A stretch of DNA of 64,000 nucleotides from a bacterium (GCA_016202645.1 JACQOF010000003.1:27375-91374); one strand, 5' to 3'; shown: positions 11,895 through 43,099, counted from the first letter of the stretch. The notes: generated by a model not told the origin, from the sequence alone. Made by a program: numbers and translations.

Positions 11895-11895
11895 T

Positions 11896-12597: not shown

Positions 12598-12606
12598 GCG
12601 AATTCC

Positions 12607-14544: not shown

Positions 14545-15323
14545 TCGACGTTCACTCCTTTGTTCAAACTGAATCGGATGGGTACCAAGCATTCGCTGGT
14601 TATCTCGACCGGCCCTCTCCGGGCCGGGATAAATTTCCATTGTTTCACGGCGCGCTGCGCCGCGAGGTCCAAAATCCGGTAACCGCTGCTGACATCGACG
14701 GTCACAGCCATCGCCTCTCCTTTTTCCGAAACCGCAACCCGCAAGATCACCCGGCCCTCGTACCATGACCGCTGGGCGGCCAGGGGGTACTCGGGTTTGG
14801 GATTGTTCAAATAGGCGGGCGCGGACGAAACGTGTATTTCTTGGGCCTCACTCAACTGCATCCCCGTTGCCGGCGCCGGATCCGATACGGCCGTCGGCGC
14901 ATCTTCGGTCATTTTTTCCTGGACGGGTTCCGTCGCCGGTTCCCGGATCGGTTCCTGCACAGGTTCCGGGGGGATTTGTTCGACTTCCATCACCAACATT
15001 GCCGGGACTTCCGGGACCGGCGGTTCGGCCGGCGGGATTTCCACCGGGTTGACGGCCTCCTCCACGACGGCCGGAAGAGGCTCCGGCCTGGGTTTGGGAA
15101 CGGGCTTTTTCCGCGGGAGCACAACCGGCGTGGCGACAAGTTGGAGGGACATGCGTCCAACGGCGCTTTCCATCGGAATTTGGACAGGTGAAAACGGCCA
15201 GAACCAGAACAACAAAAAGGCGTGGAACCCCGCGGAGATCACCGTCGCCGTCCACATGGCGCCGGGCGGCTGATACAAAGGGACGGCGCGGCCGCGTCCG
15301 TTGGCATGCAGAACTTCGATCAT
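14541..15323 (-). CDS. tonB: energy transducer TonB
   Basis: N-terminal TM helix, a Pro-rich spacer (PVPKPRPEPLP, EPPVPEVP) and a C-terminal TonB domain. It lies downstream of exbB-exbD. Confidence 0.8.
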   Translation of the reverse strand: MIEVLHANGRGRAVPLYQPPGAMWTATVISAGFHAFLLFWFWPFSPVQIPMESAVGRMSLQLVATPVVLPRKKPVPKPRPEPLPAVVEEAVNPVEIPPAEPPVPEVPAMLVMEVEQIPPEPVQEPIREPATEPVQEKMTEDAPTAVSDPAPATGMQLSEAQEIHVSSAPAYLNNPKPEYPLAAQRSWYEGRVILRVAVSEKGEAMAVTVDVSSGYRILDLAAQRAVKQWKFIPARRGPVEITSECLVPIRFSLNKGVNVE

Positions 15324-27023: not shown

Positions 27024-27048
27024 GTCAGTGTTGCCATACAGCCTTCTT

Positions 27049-27079
27049 CGTCATTCCCGCGAAAGCGGGAATCCAGTCT
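27049..27079. repeat. REP-like palindromic element, copy 1 (CGTCATTCCCGCGAAAGCGGGAATCCAGTCT)
   Basis: Identical 31-mer to 31139-31169. Contains the hairpin TTCCCGC-GAAA-GCGGGAA. A second hairpin, ATGCCCGCATTCGCGGGCAT, follows at 27098-27117. Confidence 0.8.
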
Positions 27080-29234: not shown

Positions 29235-31118
29235 ATGTGCGGGATCGCCGGCTGGCTGTGGAATCAACCTCCTTCCGACCCCAAATTGACTCTCTCCCGG
29301 ATGGCCGACCGGATCGTCCACCGCGGTCCCGACGCCGGCGGATTTTATGTGGATGCCAAAGCGGGCCTGGCTCACCGGCGGCTCTCCATCATCGACCTCA
29401 ACACCGGCGATCAGCCGATGGCCAACGCCGACAAGACCATCCATGTTGTCTTCAACGGGGAGATCTACAATTTCCTGGATATCCGAAAAGACCTTCAAGC
29501 ACGCGGCCACCGGCTGGCGACACGCTCGGACACGGAAGTCCTCCTCTACCTCTGGCAGGATTACGGTCCCCGGATGCTGGAGCATCTCCGGGGGATGTTC
29601 GCCTTCGCGATCTGGGACACCCGGTCGGAGACGTTGTTTCTGGCCCGGGACCGGTTGGGCGTCAAGCCCCTGCTCTACGCCGAAACGCCGTCCGGTCTTT
29701 TCTTCGCGTCGGAACTCCAGGCTCTCCTCGCCGCGCCGGATGTCTCTCCCGTTCTGGATATCGAATCTCTCGACCTCTACCTGAGTCTTCAGTATGTTCC
29801 CGCGCCCCGCACCATCTACACGTCCATTCGGAAACTTCCGCCCGGACACTTCCTCATCGCCCGGAAAGGCCGCGTCGAGAGGATCGAGCGATACTGGGAC
29901 GTAACGCCTGCGCCGCGGAAGTGGGACCGGCGCGAGGCGGTGGAGACCCTGCGGGAGAAAGTTCAGGAGGCGGTGCGGATCCGGATGATTTCGGATGTTC
30001 CGCTCGGCGCGTTTCTCTCCGGCGGAATCGATTCGTCAATCACGGTGGGCCTGATGTCCCGCTGTGCGGACCAGCCGGTCAAAACATTTTCAATCGGGTT
30101 TGAAGAATCCGATTATTCGGAACTTGCCCACGCCCGGCGCGTCGCGGAATTTCACGCCACCGATCACCGGGAATTCGTCGTCCGGCCAGACGCGATCGAG
30201 CTTCTTCCCACCCTCGTCCGGCACTACGGCGAACCCTACGCCGACAGTTCCGCCATCCCGACGTATTACCTGTGCCGGGAGACCCGGCGGCACGTCACGG
30301 TGGCGCTGTCCGGTGACGGCGGAGACGAAGGGTTTCTCGGATACAACCGGTACCTCGCGATGCGCGTGGCGCCGGCATTGGGGAAAATCCCGGCGTCTCT
30401 GCGAAATCTGTCCATGGCGCTCCTGCGCCCTCTTCGAAAAAATAAAATCGCCAGGCAGGCCGCGCGCCTCCTCGACATGAGCGGACGCGGCACAGATCTG
30501 GCGATGTACCTCGACGCGGTTTCTCATTTCTCGGAAGCCGACAAGGCCGGCCTCTACACGGCCAATCACCGGCGGCGGATGACGGAGCGGGAGGGAGGTT
30601 TGGCCGAGTCGTACCTTCGGTCGGCATTCCGGACGGACGTGCCGCTCGTTCAGGCCCTTTCATATTTGGATCTTCAGACCTACCTGCCGGAGGACATTTT
30701 GGTGAAAGTCGACATCGCGTCGATGGCAAATTCACTGGAGACCCGGTCGGCGTTTCTTGATCAGGACGTGATCCAATTCGCGATGTCCCTGCCGCCGGAA
30801 CTGAAAATGCCGGGGTGGAGAAAAAAAGATCTTTTGAAAAACGCGTTCTCGGACCTTTTCCCGCCAGGCCTCCTGCGCCGCGGCAAAATGGGATTCGGCG
30901 TGCCGCTCGAACACTGGTTCAGAAAGGAACTCAAGTCATTCGCAGAGGAAGCCCTGGACCGGCCCCCGGAACCTCTCCGCACGCTCTTTCAGCCGGACGC
31001 CGCACGGAACCTCCTGCGGGACCACATCGAAGGCCGAAGAAAAAACGACCAGCGCCTCTGGAACCTGCTGTTTCTTTATACGTGGGCAAGACTTTTTCCG
31101 ATCTCCGATATTCGTTAG
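29235..31118 (+). CDS. asnB: asparagine synthase (glutamine-hydrolysing)
   Basis: The N-terminal MCGIAGW presents the Cys nucleophile. The PP-loop SGGIDSS and the overall 627-aa length match AsnB. Confidence 0.9.
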   Translation: MCGIAGWLWNQPPSDPKLTLSRMADRIVHRGPDAGGFYVDAKAGLAHRRLSIIDLNTGDQPMANADKTIHVVFNGEIYNFLDIRKDLQARGHRLATRSDTEVLLYLWQDYGPRMLEHLRGMFAFAIWDTRSETLFLARDRLGVKPLLYAETPSGLFFASELQALLAAPDVSPVLDIESLDLYLSLQYVPAPRTIYTSIRKLPPGHFLIARKGRVERIERYWDVTPAPRKWDRREAVETLREKVQEAVRIRMISDVPLGAFLSGGIDSSITVGLMSRCADQPVKTFSIGFEESDYSELAHARRVAEFHATDHREFVVRPDAIELLPTLVRHYGEPYADSSAIPTYYLCRETRRHVTVALSGDGGDEGFLGYNRYLAMRVAPALGKIPASLRNLSMALLRPLRKNKIARQAARLLDMSGRGTDLAMYLDAVSHFSEADKAGLYTANHRRRMTEREGGLAESYLRSAFRTDVPLVQALSYLDLQTYLPEDILVKVDIASMANSLETRSAFLDQDVIQFAMSLPPELKMPGWRKKDLLKNAFSDLFPPGLLRRGKMGFGVPLEHWFRKELKSFAEEALDRPPEPLRTLFQPDAARNLLRDHIEGRRKNDQRLWNLLFLYTWARLFPISDIR

Positions 31119-31138
31119 CTGATAGCTGCAGTCCTCGC

Positions 31139-31169
31139 CGTCATTCCCGCGAAAGCGGGAATCCAGTCT
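31139..31169. repeat. REP-like palindromic element, copy 2
   Basis: Identical 31-mer to 27049-27079. It sits between the convergent asnB and MMPL genes. Confidence 0.8.
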
Positions 31170-31180: not shown

Positions 31181-33898
31181 CTACCGAAGTAATTCCGTCG
31201 TCGCCGCCAGCCGCCGGCTGAGGATGGCCGAGAGGTTGTGCAGAACGCGCGTGGCCAGGCGCGGATACCGGCGCTCCATCCGCTCGAGGGCTTCGTAGCC
31301 GAACGCGAAAACCGTCGTCTCCTCGTTCACGAGAACGTCCGCGCTACGGGGATGCTCACTGATCAGGCCCATTTCGCCGACGGTCTCGCCCCGGCCGAGG
31401 CGGGTGACGACGCGGCCGGATTTGAGGATGGAAACCGACCCGTCAAGAATCACGAACATTTCGTCGCCGAGAGAGCCTTCCTGCATGAGGGGCCAGTTTT
31501 CGGGTATAGTCATCATCCGACCGAGGGACACGATCTTTTTGATCTGGGATTCTGAAAGATTTAAAAATAGCGGGATGCCGCGCGTGACGTCGGATTTGAA
31601 CTTGATCTGCCACCATTCCCAGATGCCGACCAGGGGGATCCAGCCGAGGAGGCCGGGCATCATGACGAAGTCGTCGAAGCAGGCCATGATCATGGCGATG
31701 ACCATGAAAAACCCGAAGAGCCGCACCGGCTCGAATTCGGAAAACAAAAGGACCGAAAATCCGACCGCCAGCGCCGCGTTCGTGTAAAGCATCGCCCGGC
31801 CCACCCCGCTGACGACTTCCCGCACCGCCAGCCGCCCCTGCGGCCGCGCGCGGATGTTCCGCATATAGTGAACGATGAAATGGACGGTGTCGTCGACGGC
31901 GATGCCGAGCGCGACAGACGCCAAGAGCGCCGTGGCGATGTCGATGCGGATGCCGAGATAACCCATGACGCCCAGCACCGCGGTGATCGGCGCGATGTTC
32001 GGGATCATCGCCAGGAAACCGACTTTGGCCGCGCCGAAACAGACCCACATCACCAGAAAAATGCCGAGCGCGGTCCCGAGAAATCCCTGGATCTGGCCCT
32101 TCAGAATCGCCTGATTGGCCCGGCAGGCCATGTAGAGGTCCCCGGTGACGTAGCCCTTGAGGTCCTCGGGCCAGTTTTCCCGGATGTAGGCGTTGAGACG
32201 GTCGGCCAGCGCGAGGATCTCCGGCGAGCTGACGTTTTCCACGCGGATCTCGATCCGTGAGCGGTCGTAATCGTAGTTGACGAAACGGTCAAAATGCGAC
32301 GGGTCGTCTCCGACCGTGGCCACCAGGAGAAGCTGTGAAATCTCAAGATGGTCGTCCGGAATTTTTTCGAGGGCCGGGTCGCCCGAATGCACCGCGCGGT
32401 TCAGGCGCTTGACGGTGTCGACGAAGGAGAAGGTTTTCAGGACGTACGGCTGGTCCGCAGCGAAGGCCTGCAGGGATTCGATGGCTCTGAGGGTTTCCGG
32501 ATTTTTCATCGACGCGGGCGAGCCGCCCTCCGCCACCACCGACAGGGACAGCGCCCCGCCGAGGTGTTTTTCGAGCATCTGAAATCCGAGACGCACCGGC
32601 GCGTCTTCCTTGAAAAATTGTTTGGGGTCATTTTCCACACGCAAGGACAGGAGCCCCAGAGAAAGAATCAGGGTCAGGCCGAATGTGAACACGAGGGTCC
32701 GGCCTTTGTTCCTGTAAAACATCTGGGAATACTCGGCGATGGACTTCATCCAGCCGCTCGTCCGCGACGGCGTGACGGTTCCCACGCGGACCCGGAACGC
32801 CAGGAGCGGGAGCGATGTGAACAGGCAGACCGAGGTGCAGAAAAGTCCCAGGGAGGAAAAAAATCCGAACTGGCGGATGGCCGGGATGTCGGTCAGACAG
32901 AGAGACGCCATCCCGATCATCGTCGTGAACTGCGCCAGGACCAGCGGGAAAAACGTGTCGGCGGCGGCGTTTTCACAGATCGTCACCGGGTCCTCCTCGC
33001 AGTCCCCATAGAACGACAACCGGGTCAGAAATTGCAGGGAGTAAGTGGTGCTGAGCGTCATGAGGACGGTCGGCAAAATGACGTCGATGGGCGTCAGGGA
33101 CCGGCCAAGCCATCCGATCACGCCGAACATCCAGACCAGGGACATGAGCATGAGTCCGAGCGGGAGCAGAACGCCGGCGGCAGTCCGGAATATCCAGAAC
33201 AGAAAAATTCCAATGACAAGGGCGGTGAGGGGAAGAAGACGTTTCATTTCCCGAAGCATGGCCTGGTGGAGCTCGACGGTCTGGAGGTGCCCGCCGGCGA
33301 AGTGGACCGGGACCTTCGGCGCTTCCAGTTTGAAGACGTCCTTGAACCGCTTCGTCAGATAGTCGAGCTGGACCGCGCGGATGTGCGGCCAGGTCCGGAC
33401 GATCACCGCCGCGTAGCGGCCGTCGGCGGAAATCAGATGGTTGACGAAATGGCGGTCGTCCAAAACAGCCTGCCGCAGACGCGACGCCTCCTCATCTGTT
33501 CCAGGCGGCCGCGAGCCGATCCGGTAGGCCTCGAGTGTCCTGCCCGAACCCCTGTACATCGGTTCGTGGGTCAGGCTGGTGACCCGTTTGGTTCCCGGCA
33601 GGCGCTCGACGGCGGTGGAAACTTTCGACAAGATTGCGAGGTTCTCGGGGGTGAAGACGTCGTCAAACTCGAGCAGAGCGATGAGAAACCGGTCGTCCCC
33701 GAATTCCTGGACATTCTGCCGGTACTTCAGAAGTTCCGGGTTCTGGGTCTCGATGAAGAGGTCGTCCGAGGTGTCGACTTGAAGGTTCGGATACGTCAGA
33801 TGCCAGAGGCCGCCACCGAGCGCGGCCGTGATCAGGACCATCAGGAAAGAGACCTTGCCGCGGTTTCTATGCAGGAACTGGATGTATTTTCGCGTCAT
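31181..33898 (-). CDS. MMPL/RND-superfamily transporter fused to a C-terminal cyclic-nucleotide-binding (cNMP) domain
   Basis: Two 6-TM bundles, each preceded by a large periplasmic domain (HpnN/MMPL architecture). The C-terminal ~120 aa carries the CRP-type cNMP-binding signature LGRGETVGEMGLI...RSADV. The start was set at MTRKY because it overlaps the upstream stop by ATGA. Confidence 0.8.
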   Translation of the reverse strand: MTRKYIQFLHRNRGKVSFLMVLITAALGGGLWHLTYPNLQVDTSDDLFIETQNPELLKYRQNVQEFGDDRFLIALLEFDDVFTPENLAILSKVSTAVERLPGTKRVTSLTHEPMYRGSGRTLEAYRIGSRPPGTDEEASRLRQAVLDDRHFVNHLISADGRYAAVIVRTWPHIRAVQLDYLTKRFKDVFKLEAPKVPVHFAGGHLQTVELHQAMLREMKRLLPLTALVIGIFLFWIFRTAAGVLLPLGLMLMSLVWMFGVIGWLGRSLTPIDVILPTVLMTLSTTYSLQFLTRLSFYGDCEEDPVTICENAAADTFFPLVLAQFTTMIGMASLCLTDIPAIRQFGFFSSLGLFCTSVCLFTSLPLLAFRVRVGTVTPSRTSGWMKSIAEYSQMFYRNKGRTLVFTFGLTLILSLGLLSLRVENDPKQFFKEDAPVRLGFQMLEKHLGGALSLSVVAEGGSPASMKNPETLRAIESLQAFAADQPYVLKTFSFVDTVKRLNRAVHSGDPALEKIPDDHLEISQLLLVATVGDDPSHFDRFVNYDYDRSRIEIRVENVSSPEILALADRLNAYIRENWPEDLKGYVTGDLYMACRANQAILKGQIQGFLGTALGIFLVMWVCFGAAKVGFLAMIPNIAPITAVLGVMGYLGIRIDIATALLASVALGIAVDDTVHFIVHYMRNIRARPQGRLAVREVVSGVGRAMLYTNAALAVGFSVLLFSEFEPVRLFGFFMVIAMIMACFDDFVMMPGLLGWIPLVGIWEWWQIKFKSDVTRGIPLFLNLSESQIKKIVSLGRMMTIPENWPLMQEGSLGDEMFVILDGSVSILKSGRVVTRLGRGETVGEMGLISEHPRSADVLVNEETTVFAFGYEALERMERRYPRLATRVLHNLSAILSRRLAATTELLR

Positions 33899-34698
33899 CG
33901 CAGAGAGGTCACGTTTTCTTCGGTGAAGAAGTCCACAGGCAGGTTGCGGTTGATTTGAACATCCTCGAAAGTCATTTCCGTCCAATGGGGACGCAGGGGG
34001 CTGAAGACGGCCCGGCGGCGCGCGCGCCAGTGCCGTCCGTCCGGCCGATAAAAATCGGACCAGGTCGACGTTTTGAAGAGCCGGCCGAGCGTGTCGAAAT
34101 AATCGGCGCGCAGGAGCACCAGCCGTTCCGTGTCGACCCACAGAAGCTGGTGGTCGTAGGCCGCGCGGGACTTGATCGTCTCCGCCGTCGGCGTCACCCG
34201 GATGACCTGCGCCGGGCGGCCCTCCAGATTTTCTTCCCGGATGGTTTCAAATGCGTAGTCGTCGAGGACAAACGGCACGAAATCCTCATAGGTCAGGTCA
34301 CTGCCGAAAACGTAATCGCTTTTGCCGCTCTCGGAAAGAATCTTGGGGTTCCGGAACGCCGGCAGATAAAGCCATTGGTAATTTTCTCCGGCCGGCTGGT
34401 TGATGCTCACCAGAGTCATGCCATTGAGATCATTCGGCTCGAGAAACCTGAGAAGCACCGCGCCCATGTTGTTCTCGGGCGCGCGCTGATAGAAGGTTTT
34501 GATCCGCCACCGCTTCTGCTGGCCGTTGGGATGAATAAGCAGAAGGGACGCCACGCTCACTTCATCGGCCGGCCCCAGATTCGCGTCCACCAGCGCCATC
34601 ACATTCCGCGCGTTCGGCGCCCCGGGCAGAGTCTCCGCAGGGAGCGTTCCACACATCAGCAGGCACAGGAGTACTCCCCCCGCAAGTCGCCGGAACAT
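33895..34698 (-). CDS. LolA-like outer-membrane lipoprotein-sorting family protein
   Basis: Signal peptide and ~245-aa LolA-like fold size. Gene-order partner of MMPL/HpnN transporters. Confidence 0.65.
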   Translation of the reverse strand: MFRRLAGGVLLCLLMCGTLPAETLPGAPNARNVMALVDANLGPADEVSVASLLLIHPNGQQKRWRIKTFYQRAPENNMGAVLLRFLEPNDLNGMTLVSINQPAGENYQWLYLPAFRNPKILSESGKSDYVFGSDLTYEDFVPFVLDDYAFETIREENLEGRPAQVIRVTPTAETIKSRAAYDHQLLWVDTERLVLLRADYFDTLGRLFKTSTWSDFYRPDGRHWRARRRAVFSPLRPHWTEMTFEDVQINRNLPVDFFTEENVTSLR

Positions 34699-35575
34699 GG
34701 CAGCACCCTACCACAAATCCCGCTCCATAGACCATCCCATCTCCCCCTGAAGGGGGGAGAGGCCATCCGCCCAAGGCGGACGGGTGAGGGGGGAAAGAAT
34801 CATCTTGTTTCCATCTTCCCCTCACAATATTTTTTGACTCGCCTTTCATTCCATGCCCCGCCTTTGAATTTTTCACGAAAACGCCGGTAAAAGAATAGGC
34901 GTAGTGGATGTTGACGGTGTGAGTCTCCCCGCCTTTGACAATCTCCTGTGTTTCCTTTTGTTTATTCTTCTTTCGAACATCGTCGCAGGCGATTTTTGAG
35001 AAGAGTTCTTCGGCCAACGCCTTGCACGCGGGGTCCGGGTGTCGCCGGGCATGATCGTGGCCCAGGATGTATTTATCAATAAATCGGAGACCGCCGGAAA
35101 ACCAAAAGATGACAATGCCCGCGATTACAAAGACCGGCGCCAGCCCTGCTTTACCGAAAAGCCTGGCCCGCGAAAAAGGATGGAAATACAGGATTGAAGA
35201 GACAGCGACAATGGCCCTGACAATCAGGAGCACAAAAACGTACGGTCCGAGCAATCTGTACACGTATCGACCAGGGCTGAGGCCGATCATGTATCCGAGC
35301 GCGACGATTGTGAAAAGGAGCGATACCAAGGTCAGGCAGGAATCAAATGTGATGAGTCGCGACGTCCATTTTGTGTCCTTCATTAATACGGCGAGAATCA
35401 GAGCGTGATAGACGGCGTAGGCCGCTGTGAAAAGATGCCATTTCGGAAAAGGAAACGCCGGATCCAGCACGGATTGGTAGACGCTCCACAGGGCGCTCGC
35501 CAGAAACCCCAGGGCAAGAAATCCGTTGAGTCCATAGATCAACCCCCTGGATGCACGGCTTTTTGGATCCATCAT
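34562..35575 (-). CDS. polytopic membrane protein (5 TM) with cytoplasmic tail; 3' end uncertain
   Basis: The first ~250 aa are convincing: TM helices followed by a charged tail. The ORF then reads through a hairpin-rich, intergenic-looking stretch and overlaps the LolA-like start by 137 nt. A frameshift or a shorter true product is possible. Confidence 0.45.
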   Translation of the reverse strand: MMDPKSRASRGLIYGLNGFLALGFLASALWSVYQSVLDPAFPFPKWHLFTAAYAVYHALILAVLMKDTKWTSRLITFDSCLTLVSLLFTIVALGYMIGLSPGRYVYRLLGPYVFVLLIVRAIVAVSSILYFHPFSRARLFGKAGLAPVFVIAGIVIFWFSGGLRFIDKYILGHDHARRHPDPACKALAEELFSKIACDDVRKKNKQKETQEIVKGGETHTVNIHYAYSFTGVFVKNSKAGHGMKGESKNIVRGRWKQDDSFPPHPSALGGWPLPPSGGDGMVYGAGFVVGCCHVPATCGGSTPVPADVWNAPCGDSARGAERAECDGAGGRESGAGR

Positions 35576-37203
35576 TTTGGCGAGGGCGTTTCCTCGGTCA
35601 CATCCATCTTCCGCACGGGCGTTCTCGTGGGATCGGAGTCGATCGATCCCTGCCAGGATAAATCATGATCTTCGGGATCAATCTTATGAATATCGGTTCG
35701 GCCGGTGAAGGCCACTGCGAACGTCGCTGTTCCATCGAGTCGATAACTTCCAGGGTACAAAAACCCTCGCCCTCTTTCGCTTCCGGACCACCAAACATGA
35801 AAATCGCCGACAAGGATGTGAATATTTTTGGGGTCTAAACGGCCCTGCCCGCGCACAATCCCCGTATCTTTGAGGGAGAGGAATTTTTTGCCGGACGGTC
35901 GCTCACTCCAGTAGAACCATTCGTATTTACCGCGTTCAGGTTCGGTGCGTTGTTCGTCGAGAATCAGAACGCCAAGCGCCGACCCGTGTTTGAGCAAAAT
36001 GACTTCTTTATCTTTGGTTCGTCCCCGAAACGCCTGTCGGCGGCCCCTCTCACCCGTCCAATAGTGCTCGCACTTTTTAAAATCGTGGCTTCGGATATCA
36101 AGGCGGATGGCCTTCCCGGGAACTTTAAAGTCCGACCGGCACAGCGAACATTGGATTCGAAAAAATGCAAACTTTCTGGGATCGCCGTGATCGTAACGGC
36201 TCCACTTTCTAAGTTCGGCAAAGCCCGGCTGCTTACGCGTCTGCCATTGCAGATTTGGGGCGGTCGGATCAACTTTGGCAAGATCGGCTTCCTGTGTAAA
36301 ACAAACGGAAACGGGCGGAGCTTTGGAATTCATATCTCTGGCCGGCAAGAGATTGCCGGAAAGAGTGTCCCGGCCCGGTTCCCATCCCAAACGGATCGGT
36401 CCGAGGATAATTTCCTTTTCTCGGACGTATTCTTCGGAGTTTCGGGTCAGCCGGCCTTTTTTGACATCGGGATCATCCGGCCGGAATGGTCCCTGCCCAT
36501 CCTCGCGGAGATACCAACGAAGGTCGAAGTCGGCATCGCGCCCGCGCGCAGAGGTGGTTTGCGAGTCAAAGATCACCGCGGCCAAAGTTTTTCCCATACG
36601 CGCCAATACAATCTCGCCGTTCCATGCCCGGCCGACATAGGCCCGGTACCATCCCGGCGGCATCGCCCAACTGTGCGAGCACCTGTCAAAATCATGGCCC
36701 AACGTGCCCGGCTCGATTTTCGTGCCTGGAAACGATATTTCCGAACCACATTGACCGCAGGTCAGGTACACGGTATCTGCCTTGCGTGGGTCCGTGTTGA
36801 GTTTTGGGGATGTCGGCGCCCGGTTACCTTGTGGCAACCGGCGGCGTTTCGCCGGAGCGCGTTTCGGAGATGGCTTCCCGAGCCGACTCATTGTCCGAGT
36901 GTCAACGTAGATGCGGTGTTTGATTTGCTGAAAGATTTCGTCGGAAATATCCGGAACGTGCTGGATATCTTCCACCGATTTGAACGCCCCATACGTATAT
37001 CGATATGCGTCGATCATCTTGGCGCGGTATTCATCGATGCCCGGCAGTGTCTTAAGCTCCCCAACACCGGCGCTGTTGATATCCACACTCCGCGAACCCG
37101 GCGGATTTTTGCCGACGGAACGCCCGTCGGCGGCCGTGGCACACATCAGAATGAGGCCGATCCAGACCAGTACGGATTTCAGGCCCCCTTTCCTCTTATT
37201 CAT
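35572..37203 (-). CDS. secreted ComEA-like helix-hairpin-helix protein with duplicated Cys-motif domain
   Basis: Start MNKRKGG overlaps the upstream stop by ATGA. Signal peptide is followed by a ComEA HhH domain (VDINSAGVGELKTLPGIDEYRAKMI...FKSVEDI). Two ~100-aa internal repeats each contain C-x2-C ... HDF(D/K)(R/K)C(S/E)H(S/Y)W. Confidence 0.6.
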   Translation of the reverse strand: MNKRKGGLKSVLVWIGLILMCATAADGRSVGKNPPGSRSVDINSAGVGELKTLPGIDEYRAKMIDAYRYTYGAFKSVEDIQHVPDISDEIFQQIKHRIYVDTRTMSRLGKPSPKRAPAKRRRLPQGNRAPTSPKLNTDPRKADTVYLTCGQCGSEISFPGTKIEPGTLGHDFDRCSHSWAMPPGWYRAYVGRAWNGEIVLARMGKTLAAVIFDSQTTSARGRDADFDLRWYLREDGQGPFRPDDPDVKKGRLTRNSEEYVREKEIILGPIRLGWEPGRDTLSGNLLPARDMNSKAPPVSVCFTQEADLAKVDPTAPNLQWQTRKQPGFAELRKWSRYDHGDPRKFAFFRIQCSLCRSDFKVPGKAIRLDIRSHDFKKCEHYWTGERGRRQAFRGRTKDKEVILLKHGSALGVLILDEQRTEPERGKYEWFYWSERPSGKKFLSLKDTGIVRGQGRLDPKNIHILVGDFHVWWSGSERGRGFLYPGSYRLDGTATFAVAFTGRTDIHKIDPEDHDLSWQGSIDSDPTRTPVRKMDVTEETPSPK

Positions 37204-39194
37204 CTTCGACCCCTCCCTTCGCGGTGGTTCAATGCGTACATCGCCCACAGTCCCCAGACATTGAAAAGCAGGAGCGTCAGGTAGGGGAAGGACGTCTGTA
37301 TCAGCATGGGCCGGACATAAAATCTGAACAAAAGCGCGCAGGCCGCAAACGCTATGAAACAGACGATCCCGCCGCGACGGTATGACGCCGGGTCCATCCC
37401 TTCGAAGAAGGCCGACGGCGGGTCGTTCGAGATGAACCGGTCGACCACGAATCCGATCACGCACCAGGCCGGAAACGGCAGCCACTTTAAGTCGTCGAGA
37501 ACAGGATGGGAAGGGGCGTCATAGGGAACTTCAACCCGCCTGGCGAGCTGTCCCCTGTTGTCAAAATAGAGGATCTGCTGGGGTCCGTGTTGAATCATTC
37601 TCTGAAACAGCGCAAACCCCCCGGCGTCCAAGATGCCGACGGAGAGAGGGTCGGATGCGGACATGCCCCCGATGGGAAATCTTGTCCGGCGCAGGGCCGA
37701 AGGATCCATGACGAAGCGTTCGTCATCATCGGCGGGATTCTCCTGGAGAGGGAAGGCCGTCAGTTCGCTATCGGTCAGCAGGGCGACCCAGAATCCGCGC
37801 GCGGACAGCCGGTCGAACCGCAGAAGGCCGGCGCCCATGCGCCGGATGTTCCCGTCAAATTCAGCAATCTTCCGGGCTGAACTGTGCGTCCGGGCGAACG
37901 TCACGTGATAGAGGACGCGGCCCGCAGCCAGAAGACGTTCGTTCGGCCTGTCCGGCAGGGCGATCAGGTAATCCGCCTGATCGTCTATCTCCTCGAATTC
38001 ACCCGCCGGCGTTTCGTAATGAAATCCATCCGGAACAAGCCATCCGATGCGTTCGCGGCTCACGGGATCGTAGGCGACGATTCGATTTGCTCCGGGATCG
38101 AGAAACCAGTTCCAATCGTCTGTCAGATGCCCATAGGAGACGTTTTCCTCGTATGGGACGTAGAGACGCGTCGTGCCTTTGGCGTTGAGTGAGAATCGTT
38201 CGACGGCGTCTTCCATCGGATGATCCAGACGAATGGTTGAGGACGCCGCTTCATAGGGCCACGGCCCGGCGACCTCCGGAAGCGGACGCCCCTCCAAATC
38301 GAATACCCTCGCCAGACGGCCTTCGCCCGGGCTGACCAGCCAGGCGGCGCCGTCGGACTTCACGGAAATTTCGCGGTTCGGCCCGGGATTCAACAAATCC
38401 GGCAAAATACCCACAACGGCGCCGGGAAAAATAGTCAACGCGGTTGAGACGAATGCCGTGATCCACCACGGGAGGGGCTTTGAGCCTGGAGGCGAAACGC
38501 TCCATTGCAAAAAAGTTCTTCGAGCAAACAGGATCATCGAAACACACAACAGAACCGCGGCGAGAAAGAGAGGGAAGCCCATTTTGAATCCATCCCCCAG
38601 CGGGGGCTGGGTTGTGCCGCCGGCCATGAGCAAGACTATTCCGAAGGCCAACAAGGTACAGAGCACCACCCCCGAATTCCGTTGGGGGGAGAATGAGTAA
38701 TAGAAGACAAGCAGATAGACGCAGATCCCCCGGACGATGGATGCAGTTGCGGGGACCAGCAAGATCCATGAGAATGGCGACGCGAACGAACTCCGGACGA
38801 GCGACACCCACGTACAGACCATCAGGGGTGCGCCGAGAGTGACCAGCAAAATCAGAATCCCGGCGGCGGCTTTGCCGGCGCCGACGGATCCGCGTCCAAC
38901 CGGCCGTGTGAGCAGGACGGGCCACATTCCGTGGGCGGTTTCGGGACGAATCTGCAGGACCCCCAGGACCAATCCCGCGCAACACGCATAGACGTTCAGG
39001 GCGACCAGAAACGAAAGCTGGAGATGGGGAAGGATCATGTTTTCCGACAGGATGAGGACGCTGAACCGGAACGCGCCGATCCGGGCGAATCCGAGCGCGT
39101 CCAAGAAAAACGCGCAGATCAGAAATTGGCCGGCGAAGACAACCAGCATCGCACGCCGAAGGGACTGAAATTCTCTTTTCAGAACGAACGTCAT
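37200..39194 (-). CDS. ABC-2 type permease with large extracytoplasmic (propeller-like) domain
   Basis: Six N-terminal TM helices, a ~350-aa soluble insert and C-terminal TM helices. Translationally coupled to the ABC ATPase upstream. Confidence 0.6.
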   Translation of the reverse strand: MTFVLKREFQSLRRAMLVVFAGQFLICAFFLDALGFARIGAFRFSVLILSENMILPHLQLSFLVALNVYACCAGLVLGVLQIRPETAHGMWPVLLTRPVGRGSVGAGKAAAGILILLVTLGAPLMVCTWVSLVRSSFASPFSWILLVPATASIVRGICVYLLVFYYSFSPQRNSGVVLCTLLAFGIVLLMAGGTTQPPLGDGFKMGFPLFLAAVLLCVSMILFARRTFLQWSVSPPGSKPLPWWITAFVSTALTIFPGAVVGILPDLLNPGPNREISVKSDGAAWLVSPGEGRLARVFDLEGRPLPEVAGPWPYEAASSTIRLDHPMEDAVERFSLNAKGTTRLYVPYEENVSYGHLTDDWNWFLDPGANRIVAYDPVSRERIGWLVPDGFHYETPAGEFEEIDDQADYLIALPDRPNERLLAAGRVLYHVTFARTHSSARKIAEFDGNIRRMGAGLLRFDRLSARGFWVALLTDSELTAFPLQENPADDDERFVMDPSALRRTRFPIGGMSASDPLSVGILDAGGFALFQRMIQHGPQQILYFDNRGQLARRVEVPYDAPSHPVLDDLKWLPFPAWCVIGFVVDRFISNDPPSAFFEGMDPASYRRGGIVCFIAFAACALLFRFYVRPMLIQTSFPYLTLLLFNVWGLWAMYALNHREGRGRR

Positions 39195-40120
39195 CCGGGT
39201 TCAACCATCGCAATGAACAATTCCTCGAGGTTCATCTTGTGGACGGAGACGCCCGGATACTCCATGAGACGCCGTTCGGCCCGGTCACAGTACGCCACCA
39301 CGCGCCACTCGTTCTCGGACTGTATCGCCCGAAGGACGCCGGGAATCCGGGGAATGTCCGCAGCGCGGGCCGGGAAGGGAATGACATACTTTCGGACGGC
39401 GCCGAGAATGTCCGACAGCGGTTCATCGAGAATGACGCTGCCGTCCCGCAGAACACCGACTCGGTCTGCGAGTTTGGCGACGCTGAAGATGTCGTGGGTC
39501 GTGAGGAGGATCGAACAGCCGCGGTCAGCAAGCTCCCTCAGAACGACGCCGAAAACTAGGTTACGCGCGATCTGGTCGAGACCCAGGGTGGGATCGTCGA
39601 GGATCAGAAAATCCGGGCGGGCGCTGACACAAAGAGCCAGCGCGGCCAGCGCGCGTTCGCCCCGGGACAACTGCGCCGGACGGGCGTCTTCCCGCAGGGA
39701 AAAAGATTTCAGGCAGTCGGAAAAAAAAGCGTCATCCCACGACGGGTACAGCGGCCGATGGAGCCTGGCCGCGTGGCGGATGCTGAACGCCGGGTCCATC
39801 GGATGGCCTTCAGGCATATACCCAATCCGTCGGAACGCATCCCGGCCCAATTCGGATGAAGCCCGGCCAAAAGCAAAAGACTGGCCGGAGGTTGGGTTAA
39901 GCAGGCCCAGAAGGACATGGATGGCGGTCGTTTTGCCGGCGCCGTTCCGGCCCAGCAAGGCGTAGATCGTGCCCGGCTCGATCGAAAAGGAGACTTCAGT
40001 CAATATATTTTTGGGATGACCCTTGTTGGGGACCGTGACGGTGACTTGTTCCAGCGCCGCGACAGGACCGGGAGGATTATCCGGCAAGTTTGCGTTTCTC
40101 CAGGCGCTGGGTCTGGGCAA
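39191..40120 (-). CDS. ABC transporter ATP-binding protein
   Basis: Walker A GRNGAGKTT, signature LSRGERALAAL and Walker B LILDDPTLGLD. The annotated start overlaps gntR by 44 nt, so the true start may be a downstream TTG. Confidence 0.85.
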   Translation of the reverse strand: MPRPSAWRNANLPDNPPGPVAALEQVTVTVPNKGHPKNILTEVSFSIEPGTIYALLGRNGAGKTTAIHVLLGLLNPTSGQSFAFGRASSELGRDAFRRIGYMPEGHPMDPAFSIRHAARLHRPLYPSWDDAFFSDCLKSFSLREDARPAQLSRGERALAALALCVSARPDFLILDDPTLGLDQIARNLVFGVVLRELADRGCSILLTTHDIFSVAKLADRVGVLRDGSVILDEPLSDILGAVRKYVIPFPARAADIPRIPGVLRAIQSENEWRVVAYCDRAERRLMEYPGVSVHKMNLEELFIAMVEPG

Positions 40121-40484
40121 AGGATTTGCGCGCCAGACCCGCGAACTGCCGGCCGTCCAGCCCCGCCAGCCTCGCCTCCACGGCCGGCGACTGCAAGAGT
40201 CCTTCGACGCGCCGGACGGTCCGGGCGGAGGGTTTCGATCCGAACGAAATAAAACTGCCGGATCCCTGGATGAGCGTCAGCACGCCGTCCTTTTCAAGCT
40301 CGCGGTAGGCCCGGGCGATCGTGTTGGGATTGACCGCGCAAGCCTCGGCCAGCTCCCGGACGGTCATCAGGGAGTCGCCCGGTTTCAGCTCTCCGGTCGC
40401 GACCCGGAGTTTGACCTGGTCGACAATCTGCAGAAAAATCGGTGTCGGCGACGTCGGATCGGCCTTGAAGGGCGCTCTTGACAT
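40077..40484 (-). CDS. GntR-family transcriptional regulator (YtrA-like short C-terminus)
   Basis: Winged HTH with MTVRELAEACAVNPNTIARAYRELEKDGVL. The GntR-ABC ATPase-permease triad is typical of the YtrA subfamily. Confidence 0.85.
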   Translation of the reverse strand: MSRAPFKADPTSPTPIFLQIVDQVKLRVATGELKPGDSLMTVRELAEACAVNPNTIARAYRELEKDGVLTLIQGSGSFISFGSKPSARTVRRVEGLLQSPAVEARLAGLDGRQFAGLARKSFAQTQRLEKRKLAG

Positions 40485-40505
40485 TGTATTAGTAGAACTA
40501 ATACA
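40485..40505. promoter_or_regulatory. perfect palindrome TGTATTAGT-AGA-ACTAATACA (candidate GntR operator)
   Basis: 9-3-9 perfect inverted repeat directly abutting the gntR ATG. It lies inside a 44-bp divergent intergenic region. Confidence 0.5.
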
Positions 40506-40528
40506 TTAAGGCCGTGCCGTCAATAGAA

Positions 40529-43099
40529 ATGTCGAAAAAGGCCGGTCCGCTCCTTGTTCTGTGCGCGGCCCTCGCGGCGTGCGGGGAATCCCCCGTGACA
40601 AATCCCGCCGTCTGGGAGCCGGAATCAAACCACCCGGCGACGCGCGCCATGATTGCCGCGGCGCGGCACCTCGGGAAATCCGGCCTGTCAGACGCGCTTC
40701 GGACCCATTCCGAAAACATGCCGTTCTCGGGGTATTATCTGAAATTCGTGAGAGAAGGAAATTTCGCGGCCCGGCGACGCATCGTGAATGATTCCGGTCC
40801 CGTCATCACGGAATCCGATGAACAGACGCTCGGTCTGAACCTCACGGACTTCGATCGGCAATTCGAAGCGGCGGGGGATACGCCCATTCCTCTTTCCGTT
40901 GTGCAGACAACCCTCTTTTCCCTGTGCCAGCTTGCCACCTATGCGGTTCATCTCGATTTGGCGGTGGCGGATGAACTCGCCGGTTCCGCCGCGGCCCTGC
41001 TGGCCTGGCTGGAATCATCGATGCAGGAGGAACCGTCCATCCGCCTTTTCCGGGGCTGGATTTTTTATCTTGCCGGTGACGCACCGGGCGGCCGGCGGGA
41101 ATTGTCCGAATGCGGCGGCGAACCCTGGAAAAGCCGGGCGGAGGCGTTGGATTTTTACATCCAGTCAAAACCAAAAGAGTTGAGAAGCAGGTTGGACAAA
41201 TCGGAACCGTGGCTGGGAATGCTGTATGCAATGTCCCTGGAATCCGAGGACGTGGATGAGGCCGTCAAGGCATACAAACGACAGGTTGATCGGGGGCACG
41301 ATAATCTGCTGCCGATGCTGACTGTCGGTGGTCTGATTGAACTCGGCAACCCACAGGCGTCCAAGCATGAGGTGACCGAAGCCGGCGCGTGGATGGTGTT
41401 GGACGCCGCCGTCCCGGGTGACGCGAGCTTGCCGGAAAAATACAAGAAACTTCTGAATCTGGGGAACACGCGGGCCATTCTCACGCCGCTGATGACGAAT
41501 TTGTACCTCGGCTATTTTCGCCGGGGCGTTTTCACACGCCACGAGTTTGTCGAAAACGTCCTTGCGGCCAACGCGATGAAAAAACAATTTCTTGAGGAAT
41601 TGGCCGAAATCGGAGATCCCATCCTCGATTATCTGGCGGCGTTGACCGACATCCGGGAGAGCCGGCTGTCGGCGGGCGCTGACCGGTTTCGGAAAATCGC
41701 CGCCAATGTCAGGGATCCCTATCTGCTCGAACGGCTCAACTTGGGCCTTCCGGAGGAATGGGGCGCGCCGTTTGTGAACGAGGTCCAGGACCATCCTTAC
41801 GAAAGCTGGAGATACTACCGCCATGCCGGACTCCTCTGTGCCCGGTACGGCTGGTTTCGGAAAGCGACCAGATTTTTGAACAATTCCCTCGCTCTGAATC
41901 CTTACCAGGAAGATTTAAAAAAGATCGTCGCGACCTACAAGGAAATGTCCGCGGGACCGGATGCCTCTTTTAACCCGCAGAACGATCCGGCGCTCGGAAC
42001 TCAGTTCGCCTTTTCGATCTGGAGTCCCGAAGTCGACCGCGCGATCGAGCACATCCGCCGGAATCCCGAATTCGTCCCGAAAGAGGAGGGCATGGCGTTC
42101 GACCTGACGACCTGGATGGAATTCCGGGGAGAATACAAAGAAGCGATCGAGTTTGCGGAGCGCTGCCTGGACGCATGGCCTGAAAACATATTCGCGGCCA
42201 ATCTTTCCGCAAAGATCGGATGGATCCACCTCAAACGGCTGAAAGACGTGGAAACCGCCCGGAAACAATTCGAAAAAATGGAATGGTTTAACAACGGAAG
42301 CAACCTCCTCGGGCTGGCCGAATGTTATGAAAAATTGGGAGACGCGGAGGAGGCCGAACGGCGCTATCTGGACGATGATGAAAGGTATGGCCAAGCCGAC
42401 AAGCATTTCCCGCTGGCGGCGTACTACATCCGCCGGGGGGAATATGAGAAGGCCCTGGACGCCATCAACGACCCGGACCTGTTTTCCGGGCCGAACCCGC
42501 GCAGGGAATTTGTGACGTACGCCCTGACCTTTTATGTCGACGAGTCCTATCCGACCCTGGTGCAGATGCTCTACGAAAAAGTCATCCCCGACCGCAAGAG
42601 CTGGATTTCCTATGACTACAGCCAGTGGGCGCTGTCGTATATGCTGATGCAGAATTACGCCAAAGTGGAGGAGATCGTGGCAGCAGCCAAAAAATCGCGT
42701 GAAACGAATCCATTTCTGGATTATTTCCGGTACGTCATCGCCTGCAAACAAAAGAACTGGCCCCAAGCGGCGCAGGCCATTCAGGCCACAACGGGGAAAT
42801 ATTATCACCGGTACTTGCCGGGTGCGCTGGTCGAGGGAAAAGAACAGGCCGAGCTGGAAGAATACTCCCGCGGCAAGCCGCAGTATCAAAGCTACCTTTC
42901 GACGATGTATGGCCTCCTCGCATACCGTCACATCGCCAAAGGCTCTCTCAAGGAGGCGGAAAAATTCTTCAAACTGGACGCCGGCAGCATTCGCTACTCA
43001 ACCTGGCACATCCCCATTCTGGCCTCGTACGAAATTGGCGAGCGAATCCCGGTCACGGGGCCTTCGAGGACGCCGGGAGGTTCTGATGCAACGCGATAG
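40529..43099 (+). CDS. TPR/alpha-solenoid lipoprotein (about 857 aa)
   Basis: Start MSKKAGPLLVLCAALAACG has an LAAC lipobox. The remainder is predicted helical-repeat. Confidence 0.55.
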   Translation: MSKKAGPLLVLCAALAACGESPVTNPAVWEPESNHPATRAMIAAARHLGKSGLSDALRTHSENMPFSGYYLKFVREGNFAARRRIVNDSGPVITESDEQTLGLNLTDFDRQFEAAGDTPIPLSVVQTTLFSLCQLATYAVHLDLAVADELAGSAAALLAWLESSMQEEPSIRLFRGWIFYLAGDAPGGRRELSECGGEPWKSRAEALDFYIQSKPKELRSRLDKSEPWLGMLYAMSLESEDVDEAVKAYKRQVDRGHDNLLPMLTVGGLIELGNPQASKHEVTEAGAWMVLDAAVPGDASLPEKYKKLLNLGNTRAILTPLMTNLYLGYFRRGVFTRHEFVENVLAANAMKKQFLEELAEIGDPILDYLAALTDIRESRLSAGADRFRKIAANVRDPYLLERLNLGLPEEWGAPFVNEVQDHPYESWRYYRHAGLLCARYGWFRKATRFLNNSLALNPYQEDLKKIVATYKEMSAGPDASFNPQNDPALGTQFAFSIWSPEVDRAIEHIRRNPEFVPKEEGMAFDLTTWMEFRGEYKEAIEFAERCLDAWPENIFAANLSAKIGWIHLKRLKDVETARKQFEKMEWFNNGSNLLGLAECYEKLGDAEEAERRYLDDDERYGQADKHFPLAAYYIRRGEYEKALDAINDPDLFSGPNPRREFVTYALTFYVDESYPTLVQMLYEKVIPDRKSWISYDYSQWALSYMLMQNYAKVEEIVAAAKKSRETNPFLDYFRYVIACKQKNWPQAAQAIQATTGKYYHRYLPGALVEGKEQAELEEYSRGKPQYQSYLSTMYGLLAYRHIAKGSLKEAEKFFKLDAGSIRYSTWHIPILASYEIGERIPVTGPSRTPGGSDATR

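Follow-up and report, generated by a model that had tools for sequence, protein, structure and literature searches.

Several described systems resemble parts of the gene cluster considered here. YtrA-type cassettes, such as ytrABCDEF of Bacillus subtilis and pmtR-pmtABCD of Staphylococcus aureus, begin with the gene of a small YtrA-subfamily repressor that overlaps an ATPase gene, carry a long palindromic operator on their own promoter and encode an ABC-2-type permease (PMC5080381, PMC6746942). In these cassettes the regulator gene heads the operon, with a long palindromic operator over the start site (PMC6746942); for PmtR/pmtABCD, the repressor is released by cargo (PMC5080381). RND transporters, in turn, have been linked to LolA-fold proteins. 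The HAE3 RND transporter AmeD of Castellaniella defragrans works with the LolA-superfamily protein AmeB (PMC6394551), TOL_3187 of Thalassolituus is an MMPL–LolA-like fusion, and AmeABCD and TOL_3187 have been implicated in the handling of hydrophobic molecules (PMC6394551, PMC6304351). HpnN, an RND-superfamily member of the HAE3 branch, reportedly works with no partner in the periplasm (PMC6394551).

Organization of the cluster

Genes of both kinds lie side by side in a 9.3-kb cluster within the 64-kb window (the whole stretch of bacterial DNA that was analysed). Seven ORFs, each on the minus strand, fill positions 31181–40484. A first-pass annotation of this DNA had described this gene content, shared strand and tight packing correctly, and its domain labels agree with our Pfam calls on the seven ORFs. 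It also read the cluster as one fused seven-gene export system, and here we reach a different conclusion. The cluster is probably a mosaic of three evolutionary units rather than one machine: Module A (40523–37200, minus strand), with gntR, an ABC ATPase and a permease; Module B (37203–34562, minus strand), with a secreted helix-hairpin-helix (HhH) protein and a five-transmembrane-helix (5-TM) protein; and Module C (34698–31181, minus strand), with a LolA-like protein and an MMPL transporter fused to a cyclic-nucleotide-binding (cNMP) domain. That they read as one seven-gene system most likely reflects chance adjacency.

When the junctions are read directly, ATGA overlaps are present at four of the six (ATPase/permease, permease/HhH, HhH/5-TM and LolA-like/MMPL) and not at five, as had been claimed. 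The gntR and ATPase genes overlap by 11 nt, with a TTG start for the ATPase, and the tail of the 5-TM ORF extends 137 nt into the LolA-like gene. A single GntR-controlled operon, serving one trans-envelope export pathway in which all components act on the same cargo, would account for the common strand, the lack of intergenic gaps, these four ATGA overlaps, the continuation of the 5-TM ORF into the LolA-like gene and the lack of a strong terminator between modules. We nevertheless regard such an operon as very unlikely. The seven-gene order was seen solely in near-identical contigs from the same population, the LolA-like/MMPL pair stands alone in six of six MMPL-cNMP relatives whose context could be read, and the gntR–ATPase–permease triad is found without the other four genes in 41 of 41 of its relatives. 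The first pass had itself named a gene order shared with no relative as grounds for refutation, and this is what the relatives show. Moreover, the window holds one operator, and the pair has kept an ancestral -10-like element of its own.

A YtrA-type regulator and its predicted operator

[quoted passage not shown] Its closest solved relatives are YtrA-type regulators of 121–134 aa, including 6sbs, the YtrA of Sulfolobus (PMC6746942). Several features support the subfamily assignment. First, YtrA regulators have a C-terminal domain of ~50 aa and a total length of ~120–135 aa, a range that includes the protein encoded here. Second, gntR heads an ABC-transporter operon in the window, as it does in 41 related loci. 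Finally, a long palindromic operator with distant half-sites appears to lie over its own promoter.

This predicted operator is a 21-bp palindrome, TGTATTAGT-N3-ACTAATACA (40485–40505), that abuts the gntR ATG. Its two 9-nt arms form an exact (100%) inverted repeat, in keeping with the perfect palindrome reported earlier at this position. A -35-like box, TTGACG (40518–40523, minus strand), can be read 12 nt upstream of it, and a TTGACA-N12-operator geometry is also found in related loci (for example, L016, L024 and L057). Across the cassette family, the 21-bp motif takes the form TGTAyTA-N7-TAnTACA. Exactly one copy of the pattern TGT[AT][CT]TA-N7-TA-N-[TA]ACA is present in each of 32 related loci, adjoining gntR in 30 of them, and the 64-kb window has a single match, where 0.02 would be expected by chance. 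The same scan of the window found no second operator near the LolA-like/MMPL pair.

We propose that a YtrA-type GntR dimer binds the 21-bp palindrome, which overlaps the putative -10 region and the start site of the gntR promoter, and that a signal or cargo could release this repressor, much as phenol-soluble modulin (PSM) peptides release PmtR. Release would allow expression of the ABC ATPase and the ABC-2-like permease, making Module A an autoregulated cassette. Models for the PmtR/PmtA (PSM exporter) equivalogs score well below their cut-offs on the window proteins (NF047563, 55 versus 200 bits; NF047565, 123 versus 350 bits).

The gntR–ATPase–permease cassette

The order gntR–ATPase–permease is identical in all 41 loci with enough upstream DNA (of 48 genome loci), and the overlaps and the 21-bp operator are kept as well as the order. 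The first-pass description of these genes as a YtrA-like GntR/ABC/ABC-2 triad is supported. Homologues of the HhH, 5-TM, LolA-like and MMPL genes are absent within 10 kb of the triad in 41 of 41 related loci. The gene that follows the permease never overlaps it in these loci, among which the cassette has no conserved downstream partner. Judged by this pattern of conservation, Module A is autonomous. It differs from ytrABCDEF and pmtABCD in encoding a single ATPase and a single permease of about 665 aa with a ~340-aa ectodomain after TM7, in having Asp instead of the catalytic Glu throughout the family, and in being found mainly in Verrucomicrobiota and Planctomycetota. A C-terminal zinc ribbon is also found in most relatives but not in the window cassette.

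The ATPase (298 aa; 39191–40087, minus strand; ABC_tran E 1e-22, 81.7 bits) has the same start in the independent contig L001. Walker A (GRNGAGKT), signature (LSRGE), Walker B (FLILDD) and H-loop (TTHD) motifs are all present. The Walker B motif, however, reads ILDDP, placing Asp where the catalytic Glu is expected and in alignment with the catalytic Glu of ABCA3 (ILDEP), and the DDP sequence is found in 43 of 43 family ATPases examined. Because Asp is conserved at the catalytic-base position across the family, the sequences suggest an ABC system that works slowly, in mechanotransmission or sensing, and not a pump with high flux.

The permease (664 aa; 37200–39194, minus strand) is predicted from hydropathy to have seven N-terminal TM helices with an ABC-2-like arrangement, an ectodomain spanning approximately residues 270–600 and one C-terminal TM helix. 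Its family motif, E..RRD.WAFL.HRP..R..IF.GK, resembles the ABC-2 signature. The score with ABC2_membrane_2 (PF12679) is 16.6 bits (cut-off 27.2). Remote representatives of the permease number 267, at ~670 aa each. The ectodomain had been called propeller-like. An AF2 model (pLDDT 66, pTM 0.70) predicts that its ~340 aa are all-beta. No match to a beta-propeller fold reached significance (best E 0.013). This large beta-rich domain would face the periplasm. The nearest solved ATPases (ABCA3, ABCA4, NosF and LptB) and a weak fold match of the membrane part to NosY (TM-score 0.46 on target, E 0.18) give Module A some likeness to NosDFY and ABCA-type (type V/ABC-2) systems. In contrast to NosDFY, Module A has no NosD-like partner and carries its ectodomain within the permease, and the fold matches are not significant.

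Two orphan genes downstream of the permease

The secreted HhH protein (543 aa; 35572–37203, minus strand) consists of a signal peptide, an HHH_3 domain (residues 38–98, E 1.8e-14), a basic linker and two repeats of ~185 aa that are 29% identical (E 4e-22), each bearing the motif C-x2-C...H-D-F-x2-C-x-H-x-W. Searches with the repeat region gave no homologue. The HHH_3 module is well conserved and occurs on other secreted proteins too. An earlier comparison with ComEA holds for the single HHH_3 domain behind a signal peptide but not for the subfamily (TIGR01259, 45.6 bits versus a cut-off of 152). Unlike ComEA, the protein has 543 aa, 400 of which are unrelated Cys/His repeats, and no competence genes lie near its gene.

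The second orphan, a membrane protein with a 337-aa ORF (34562–35575, minus strand; NCBI annotation HY522_00385), has five TM helices within residues 11–163 by hydropathy, followed by a ~150-aa tail of atypical composition. Profile searches gave no family matches for this protein, and metagenome contigs held no close relatives. GC3 in Module B is 0.60–0.62 versus a window mean of 0.71. We propose that Module B comprises two lineage-specific orphans that, in this genome alone, became coupled translationally to the last gene of Module A.

Alternatively, Modules A and B could form a five-gene unit, in which the HhH/Cys-repeat and 5-TM proteins were newly recruited as cargo or accessories of the YtrA-controlled ABC system and the LolA-like/MMPL pair is simply the next operon. 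One role for the ABC system might be the export or anchoring of a secreted protein that binds DNA or a polymer. ATGA coupling at both the permease/HhH and HhH/5-TM junctions fits this arrangement, as does an HhH protein with a signal peptide and a conserved HHH_3 module; because the internal duplication retains its Cys and His residues, this protein also appears to be real and constrained. Such partners are found on no other triad, however, both genes are orphans of lower GC3, and analyses of the HhH and 5-TM proteins yielded no structural or functional clue. We therefore hold the five-gene unit to be possible but doubtful, and favor the mosaic of three units.

The LolA-like/MMPL-cNMP pair

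The first gene of Module C (33895–34698, minus strand) encodes a 267-aa periplasmic LolA-superfamily protein with a signal peptide (PF17131, TP_0789-like; 130 bits versus a cut-off of 30) that matches the solved LolA-superfamily structures PDB 3bk5 (E 8e-24) and 9tp6 (E 1e-17). LolA proper, of the Lol pathway, was considered and set aside: no NCBIfam model matched at E ≤ 0.01, and the adjacent ABC system is not of the FtsX/MacB-type LolCE kind. The second gene (31181–33898, minus strand) encodes a 905-aa MMPL/HAE3-like RND transporter with a C-terminal cytoplasmic cNMP-binding domain. PF03176 matches the transporter in two stretches (87 bits versus a cut-off of 20.5), and hydropathy reveals two TM clusters with soluble loops between them, an RND-type duplication. 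The HAE3 model TIGR00921 is the best RND subfamily match, at 172.5 bits yet below its cut-off of 351.9. The cNMP-binding domain (residues ~770–900, nt ~31184–31591; PF00027, 52.5 bits versus a cut-off of 27.5) is homologous to the cyclic-nucleotide-binding domains of PKG and CRP, and its phosphate-binding cassette is intact (GEMGL...PRSA, with VGEMGLISEHPRSA present).

The pairing of these genes, which the first pass had noted, is confirmed, as is the cNMP domain, which is intact. LolA-like and MMPL-cNMP genes form an adjacent, translationally coupled pair in six relatives, overlapping by 1–4 nt in L003–L007 and separated by a 25-nt gap in L009. The LolA-like orthologues are 57–69% identical to the window protein, and the MMPL-cNMP orthologues are 59–75% identical and carry the identical fusion. 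Downstream synteny is conserved in the relatives (asnB, metalloenzyme, FG-GAP and TPR genes), whereas the upstream neighbors change from one relative to the next (genes for Smr, UvrA, a TPR/transglutaminase protein and an HTH regulator). The genes before the pair differ from those in the window in five of five relatives that have more than ~150 nt of upstream DNA (five of the six). Homologues of the five upstream window genes were absent from L003–L007 and L009; these relatives are known from contigs only, and the absence of the triad holds for those contigs. By this comparative evidence, Module C is an independent two-gene unit. Directly upstream of the pair, L009 has a gene for a class III cyclase.

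In our model, the HAE3-like RND transporter, driven by protons, would draw a hydrophobic or amphiphilic molecule from the inner membrane and hand it to the LolA-fold periplasmic carrier, and cAMP or cGMP could gate the transporter through its C-terminal cNMP-binding domain. Module C shares with AmeABCD the genetic coupling of an RND transporter to a LolA-fold protein, a pairing that TOL_3187 accomplishes by fusion. It differs from AmeABCD in having neither the outer-membrane partner AmeA nor the second periplasmic partner AmeC, in using a PF17131 rather than a DUF1329 protein as its LolA-fold component, and in bearing a cNMP-binding domain on the transporter. The earlier label ‘HpnN-type’ is not supported. 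The transporter is likewise HAE3-like but matches HpnN models weakly, far under their cut-offs (TIGR03480, 59 versus 752 bits; NF052374, 24 versus 1100 bits), and HpnN itself reportedly acts without periplasmic partners (PMC6394551). No hopanoid biosynthesis genes were found among the window ORFs scanned.

Boundaries of the modules

Comparison with relatives reveals an extended -10-like element, TGTGGTAGGGT (34705–34715, minus strand), located 6 nt ahead of the LolA-like ATG, within the 5-TM ORF tail. In the relatives, where this DNA is truly intergenic, TTGTCC-N17-TAG(G/A)GT (L003, L005 and L007) or TGTGGTATGGT (L006) lies 6–10 nt ahead of the orthologous ATG, and a 29-nt stretch at the window element is 79% identical to L006. 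Alignment of the orthologous LolA-like proteins starts at residue 1 (L005, L006 and L007), 2 (L004) or 9 (L003). The putative internal promoter has a poor -35 position in the window, GGTCTA versus TTGTCC in relatives. Most likely, the LolA-like/MMPL pair keeps its own promoter. The proposal that all seven genes are ‘almost certainly co-translated’ fails here, at the junction of the 5-TM and LolA-like genes, which retains the ancestral -10-like element.

RNA folding predicts two tandem GC-rich hairpins with 9-bp and 8-bp stems in the same ORF tail (34738–34783, minus strand). These hairpins, which may be left over from intergenic DNA or act as a weak terminator, are suggestive only, because their z-score of just -1.1 is not significant against shuffles. 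The boundary between Modules B and C has no canonical intrinsic terminator, nor was any terminator-like site called there. Because, in addition, all seven genes point the same way without a gap, read-through from the gntR promoter could possibly produce a single long transcript.

The codon-position GC signal of the 5-TM ORF weakens past ~34900, and the independent assembly L001, which matches the window exactly over ~9.6 kb, diverges from 34814 to its contig end. Together with the hairpins, these features could indicate that the ORF tail and its 137-nt overlap are an assembly or strain artefact and that the true genome has intergenic DNA or a different junction there. We think an artefact unlikely: the ORF is uninterrupted in the window and annotated as such in the NCBI record, and the divergence of L001 is confined to the last 35 nt of the contig, a common end effect of assembly graphs.

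At the other end of Module C, a 41-nt hairpin element (31129–31169) lies between the convergent stop codons of the MMPL and asnB genes, forming the stem-loop GGAUUCCCGC-UUUC-GCGGGAAU. This element probably marks the 3' end of the transcription unit, and a second copy, 90% identical, is present at 27039–27079.

Gene layout and conservation of gene order

The interval 31181-40484 holds seven ORFs, all on the minus strand, which encode a GntR-family regulator (gntR, 40484-40077, 135 aa), an ABC ATPase (40087-39191, with a TTG start that was called identically on an independent contig), a permease (39194-37200, 664 aa), an HhH protein (37203-35572, 543 aa), a 5-TM protein (35575-34562, a 337-aa ORF), a LolA-like protein (34698-33895, 267 aa) and an MMPL-cNMP transporter (33898-31181, 905 aa). 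This observation and the palindrome at the gntR start had essentially been read correctly in the first-pass annotation, apart from the number of overlaps: ATGA overlaps do occur, but at four of the six junctions by direct reading (ATPase/permease, permease/HhH, HhH/5-TM and LolA-like/MMPL) and not at the five claimed. The gntR and ATPase genes share an 11-nt overlap, and the 5-TM ORF overlaps 137 nt of the LolA-like gene, whose start at 34698 is supported because orthologues align from residue 1.

The same annotation took these genes to be one GntR-controlled envelope export operon. That order is kept in no relative, and outside the window the HhH and permease genes turned up only on contigs from the same study, all of them fragments with 100% identity to it. 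The evidence does not support treating the seven genes as one fused biological system. Instead, the gntR-ATPase-permease triad and the LolA-like/MMPL pair are each strongly conserved as sub-modules. Both are uncharacterised variants: the triad is a YtrA/ABC cassette whose permease and active site are unusual, and the pair combines a LolA-fold protein with an RND transporter that has a cNMP domain.

Conservation of the pair is evident from orthologues of the MMPL-cNMP transporter (59-75% identity). In all six readable contexts (loci L003-L007 and L009), the LolA-like gene alone lies directly upstream of the transporter gene, overlapping it by 1-4 nt in L003-L007 and separated from it by 25 nt in L009, a distant Verrucomicrobiae locus. 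Downstream, the relatives share synteny with the window across a convergent asnB and genes for a metalloenzyme, an FG-GAP protein and a TPR protein; upstream, the pair's neighbour varies by relative (Smr, UvrA, a TPR/transglutaminase protein or an HTH regulator), and the five upstream genes of the window have no homologue in these loci. The pairing is present in reverse order in a Blastocatellia genome, one deltaproteobacterial MMPL homologue has no LolA-like partner adjacent to it, and only 8 of 96 transporter homologues carry the cNMP domain.

For the triad, a word-indexed search for close permease homologues returned the protein itself only; after this orphan-like result, a full HMMER search yielded 267 remote representatives of ~670 aa. 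Scanning genomes with a 7-sequence subset of a 28-sequence alignment gave 48 loci, mostly from Verrucomicrobiota and Planctomycetota with a few from Capsulimonadaceae and others. Wherever enough upstream DNA was present (41/41 loci), gntR and then the ABC ATPase gene precede the permease gene in the same order, and the locus of another homologue (P0104) likewise holds these three genes as a unit, overlapping by 8 nt and 4 nt. Homologues of the HhH, 5-TM, LolA-like and MMPL proteins are absent within 10 kb of the triad loci, the downstream neighbour overlaps the permease gene in none of them, and no conserved downstream partner was found. A Capsulimonas MAG has four tandem permease paralogues after one gntR-ATPase pair (L046, 2222-11890). 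Two Phycisphaerae loci have an asnB-like gene directly 3' of the triad permease gene (L034, 11849-13708; L050, ~11900-13700), and in the window lineage the MMPL gene has asnB (29235-31118) as a conserved neighbour in convergent orientation; the presence of asnB near both modules may be accidental or may point to a common envelope/polysaccharide context.

The boundary upstream of the LolA-like gene

In the relatives, a promoter-like motif is common 6-10 nt before the LolA-like ATG, reading TTGTCC-N17-TAG(G/A)GT in L003, L005 and L007 and TGTGGTATGGT in L006. The window retains TGTGGTAGGGT at 34705-34715, six nt before the LolA-like ATG, with a poor -35 position, and a 29-nt stretch around the start is 79% identical to L006; nucleotide similarity between the 5-TM tail and the relatives' intergenic DNA is limited to these 29 nt. 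The promoter-like element sits within the tail of the 5-TM ORF, where the codon-position GC signal fades. Two GC hairpins also lie in this tail (34738-34783), with folding that is not significant relative to shuffled sequence. Finally, L001, a near-identical contig from an independent assembly of another run, matches the window exactly over 9.6 kb and then diverges from 34814, within the 5-TM tail; the divergence is complete across the final 35 nt of the contig (9647-9681; window 34780-34814) and may reflect a strain variant or an assembly-graph branch. L001 and a further contig, L002, come from the groundwater runs SRR12113385 and SRR12113390. Together, the motif, the 29-nt similarity, the fading codon signal, the hairpins and the L001 divergence suggest that the LolA-like/MMPL pair has probably retained a promoter of its own and that the 5-TM tail probably arose when the ORF extended into what was once intergenic DNA. 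The hairpins at 34738-34783 and another at 31129-31169, which also folds not significantly better than shuffled sequence, are possible terminators. A pattern search of the window found no second operator site near the LolA-like gene, and thus GntR control of the pair could occur only via read-through.

Another reading is that, in this lineage, the triad and the pair have been welded into one transcription unit. A single envelope pathway would then be under the joint control of a YtrA-type repressor and a cyclic-nucleotide-gated RND pump, and the HhH/Cys-repeat and 5-TM proteins would be its new components. If true, this unit would represent a recently formed, composite trans-envelope system that is still being assembled; we regard it as very improbable. 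Most likely, the proposed fused export system is an accident of gene order, and the useful leads are the definition of the operator and cassette and the hypothesis of a cNMP-gated RND transporter.

A 41-nt hairpin-forming repeat, CGTCATTCCCGCGAAAGCGGGAATCCAGTCT, occurs at 31129-31169 and 27039-27079 in copies that are 90% identical. Each copy lies where two convergent genes meet at their 3' ends, and the repeat looks like a REP-like element or a bidirectional terminator.

Domain assignments

Searches with Pfam and NCBIfam profiles confirmed the GntR, ABC_tran, HHH_3, LolA_like and MMPL assignments and placed a cNMP-binding domain above threshold in the MMPL protein. The sole profile match of the permease is a sub-threshold one to ABC2_membrane_2, and the 5-TM protein has no Pfam or NCBIfam match. 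Curated equivalog models were all missed by wide margins: PmtR scored 55 bits (cut-off 200), PmtA 123 (cut-off 350) and HAE3 172 (cut-off 352). Two labels in the first-pass annotation fail by the same measure, HpnN-type for the LolA-like/MMPL pair (the transporter scores 59 bits versus a cut-off of 752 for TIGR03480, and 24 versus 1100 for NF052374) and ComEA-like for the HhH protein (46 versus 152 bits). A reading of the cluster as a defence system was rejected, as PADLOC models gave generic ATPase and cNMP-domain matches only. Rfam models matched only two tRNAs in the window, both distant from the cluster; riboswitches and leader RNAs were not detected.

The GntR-ABC cassette and its operator

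The triad forms a clearly delimited but uncharacterised cassette, whose examples come mainly from Verrucomicrobiota and Planctomycetota. It has a predicted operator, an Asp that is invariant at the catalytic-base position and a permease of unusual architecture. The predicted operator is a perfect 9+9 palindrome with a 3-nt spacer (40485-40505) that touches the gntR ATG, and its motif is conserved across related loci. Upstream of gntR, nearly all triad loci contain TTGACA-12 nt-TGTAyTA-N7-TAnTACA, ending a few nt before the start codon. The strict pattern occurs once per ~22-kb locus in 32 loci, adjoining gntR in 30 and lying ~0.85 kb upstream in L028 and L040, and most of the other loci show recognisable degenerate forms. 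The window contains a single match, at 40485-40505 (chance expectation 0.02), and a TTGACG box (40518-40523) stands at the family's 12-nt distance from it.

YtrA-type regulators bind long palindromes over the start site, are encoded by the first gene of their operon and repress their own expression (PMC6746942; PmtR, PMC5080381), and the operator layout in the window fits this behaviour. The best NCBIfam matches of the GntR protein are PmtR and Rv1152, both sub-threshold, and its best solved relatives are YtrA-type regulators of 121-134 aa.

A divergent TPR-lipoprotein gene (40529-43099, plus strand), whose product has a signal peptide with lipobox LAAC, begins with an ATG at 40529, 44 nt from the gntR ATG. 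On the plus strand, a promoter-like site brackets the palindrome (TTGACA at 40478-40483, an 18-nt spacer and TACATT at 40502-40507; 10/12 matches), and the GntR protein might therefore repress the TPR-lipoprotein unit as well as its own operon.

Hydropathy predicts seven N-terminal TM helices and one C-terminal TM helix in the permease. Of the propeller-like ectodomain proposed earlier, the all-beta character holds in an AF2 model built from the 28-sequence alignment (pLDDT 66, pTM 0.70), which places an all-beta domain between the TM parts; a propeller fold is plausible only, as the top Foldseek matches (the beta-propellers AztD, Atg18 and Drp35, plus NosY) are not significant. Most family permeases in alignments A1 and A2 end in a cytoplasmic zinc-ribbon tail (CxxC-x10-CxxC), which the window permease lacks, ending right after its last TM helix (37200-37260).

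In the ATPase (39191-40087), the Walker B Asp is followed by a second Asp and not by the catalytic Glu, as in 43/43 family members examined. Walker B reads L[DM]DDP across the cassette family (L012-L059), this Asp position aligning with ILDEP of ABCA3, and the signature is LSRGE(R) versus LSGGQ. The family-wide Asp and altered signature suggest changed ATP hydrolysis. We propose that a YtrA-type dimer represses its own gene at the promoter-overlapping palindrome and that an envelope-derived signal or cargo could release it, by analogy with PmtR. The ABC-2-type system under its control would combine a periplasmic beta-domain with a conserved slow-hydrolysis-type active site, features that would favour a mechanotransmitting or sensing role over bulk export.

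The LolA-like/MMPL pair and cyclic nucleotides

The LolA-like protein matches PF17131 (LolA_like, 130 bits) and is homologous to 3bk5, a solved LolA-superfamily structure (E 8e-24). The cNMP domain of the MMPL protein, which matches the cyclic-nucleotide-binding domains of PKG, CRP and channels, retains the phosphate-binding cassette GEMGL...PRSA. In a plausible mechanism, a PMF-driven, HAE3-like RND transporter would extract a hydrophobic or amphiphilic molecule and pass it to the LolA-fold carrier, a hand-over for which AmeB/AmeD provides the precedent (PMC6394551), and the C-terminal cNMP domain would gate transport.

Directly upstream of the Verrucomicrobiae pair, on the same strand, lies a gene for a 1076-aa Guanylate_cyc + AAA_16 protein (L009, 5895-9125); the position of this class III cyclase gene supports a second-messenger link. 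Such RND/MMPL transporters with an intact cNMP-binding domain make up a small clade; a LolA-fold protein accompanies every one of them, and one has a cyclase gene next to it. The literature searched contained no paper mentioning both MMPL and a cyclic-nucleotide-binding domain, and the gating of an RND pump directly by a second messenger would therefore be a new and testable regulatory mode. Even if the fused-unit reading fails, these proteins may be the first second-messenger-gated RND transporters.

The HhH and 5-TM proteins

The HhH protein comprises a signal peptide, an HHH_3 domain, a basic linker and two ~185-aa repeats that are 29% identical (E 4e-22) and share the pattern C-x2-C...H-D-F-x2-C-x-H-x-W. 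A heme-c reading of its CxxC motifs was discarded, as no CxxCH motif is present. Word-indexed searching for close homologues returned the protein itself and matches to the HhH domain only, a Cys/His repeat profile found nothing below E 0.1 among PDB sequences, and a metagenome scan found no relatives of the repeat region or of the 5-TM body. Single-sequence AF2 prediction of the HhH protein gave a pLDDT of 32, too low for use. GC3 of both orphan genes is ~0.60-0.62 versus a window mean of 0.71 +/- 0.08.

The HhH module (LPGIDEYRAKMIDAYRYTYG.F.SVE; window 36910-37090) recurs nearly invariant in four proteins from the homology searches (P0002-P0005). These secreted or anti-sigma-like proteins (TPR, Ig-like, zf-HC2) are unrelated outside the module, which occupies their N- or C-terminus and looks like a lineage-specific shuffled anchoring domain. 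The signal peptides of the LolA-like (34650-34698) and HhH (37130-37203) proteins both contain L-(L/I)-M-C, which would be a non-canonical lipobox with Met at -1, consistent with either a lipoprotein or signal peptidase I cleavage.

Other features of the window

A second ABC-2 system (9038-14766) consists of an ATPase and two ABC2_membrane_2/DUF3526 permeases and adjoins a PepSY_TM protein and a TonB-dependent receptor; the receptor points to a diderm host. Inside the FG-GAP protein gene, a GC-rich stretch (26331-26501) shows 12-nt periodicity, with seven overlapping 57-nt copies, and encodes a low-complexity segment.
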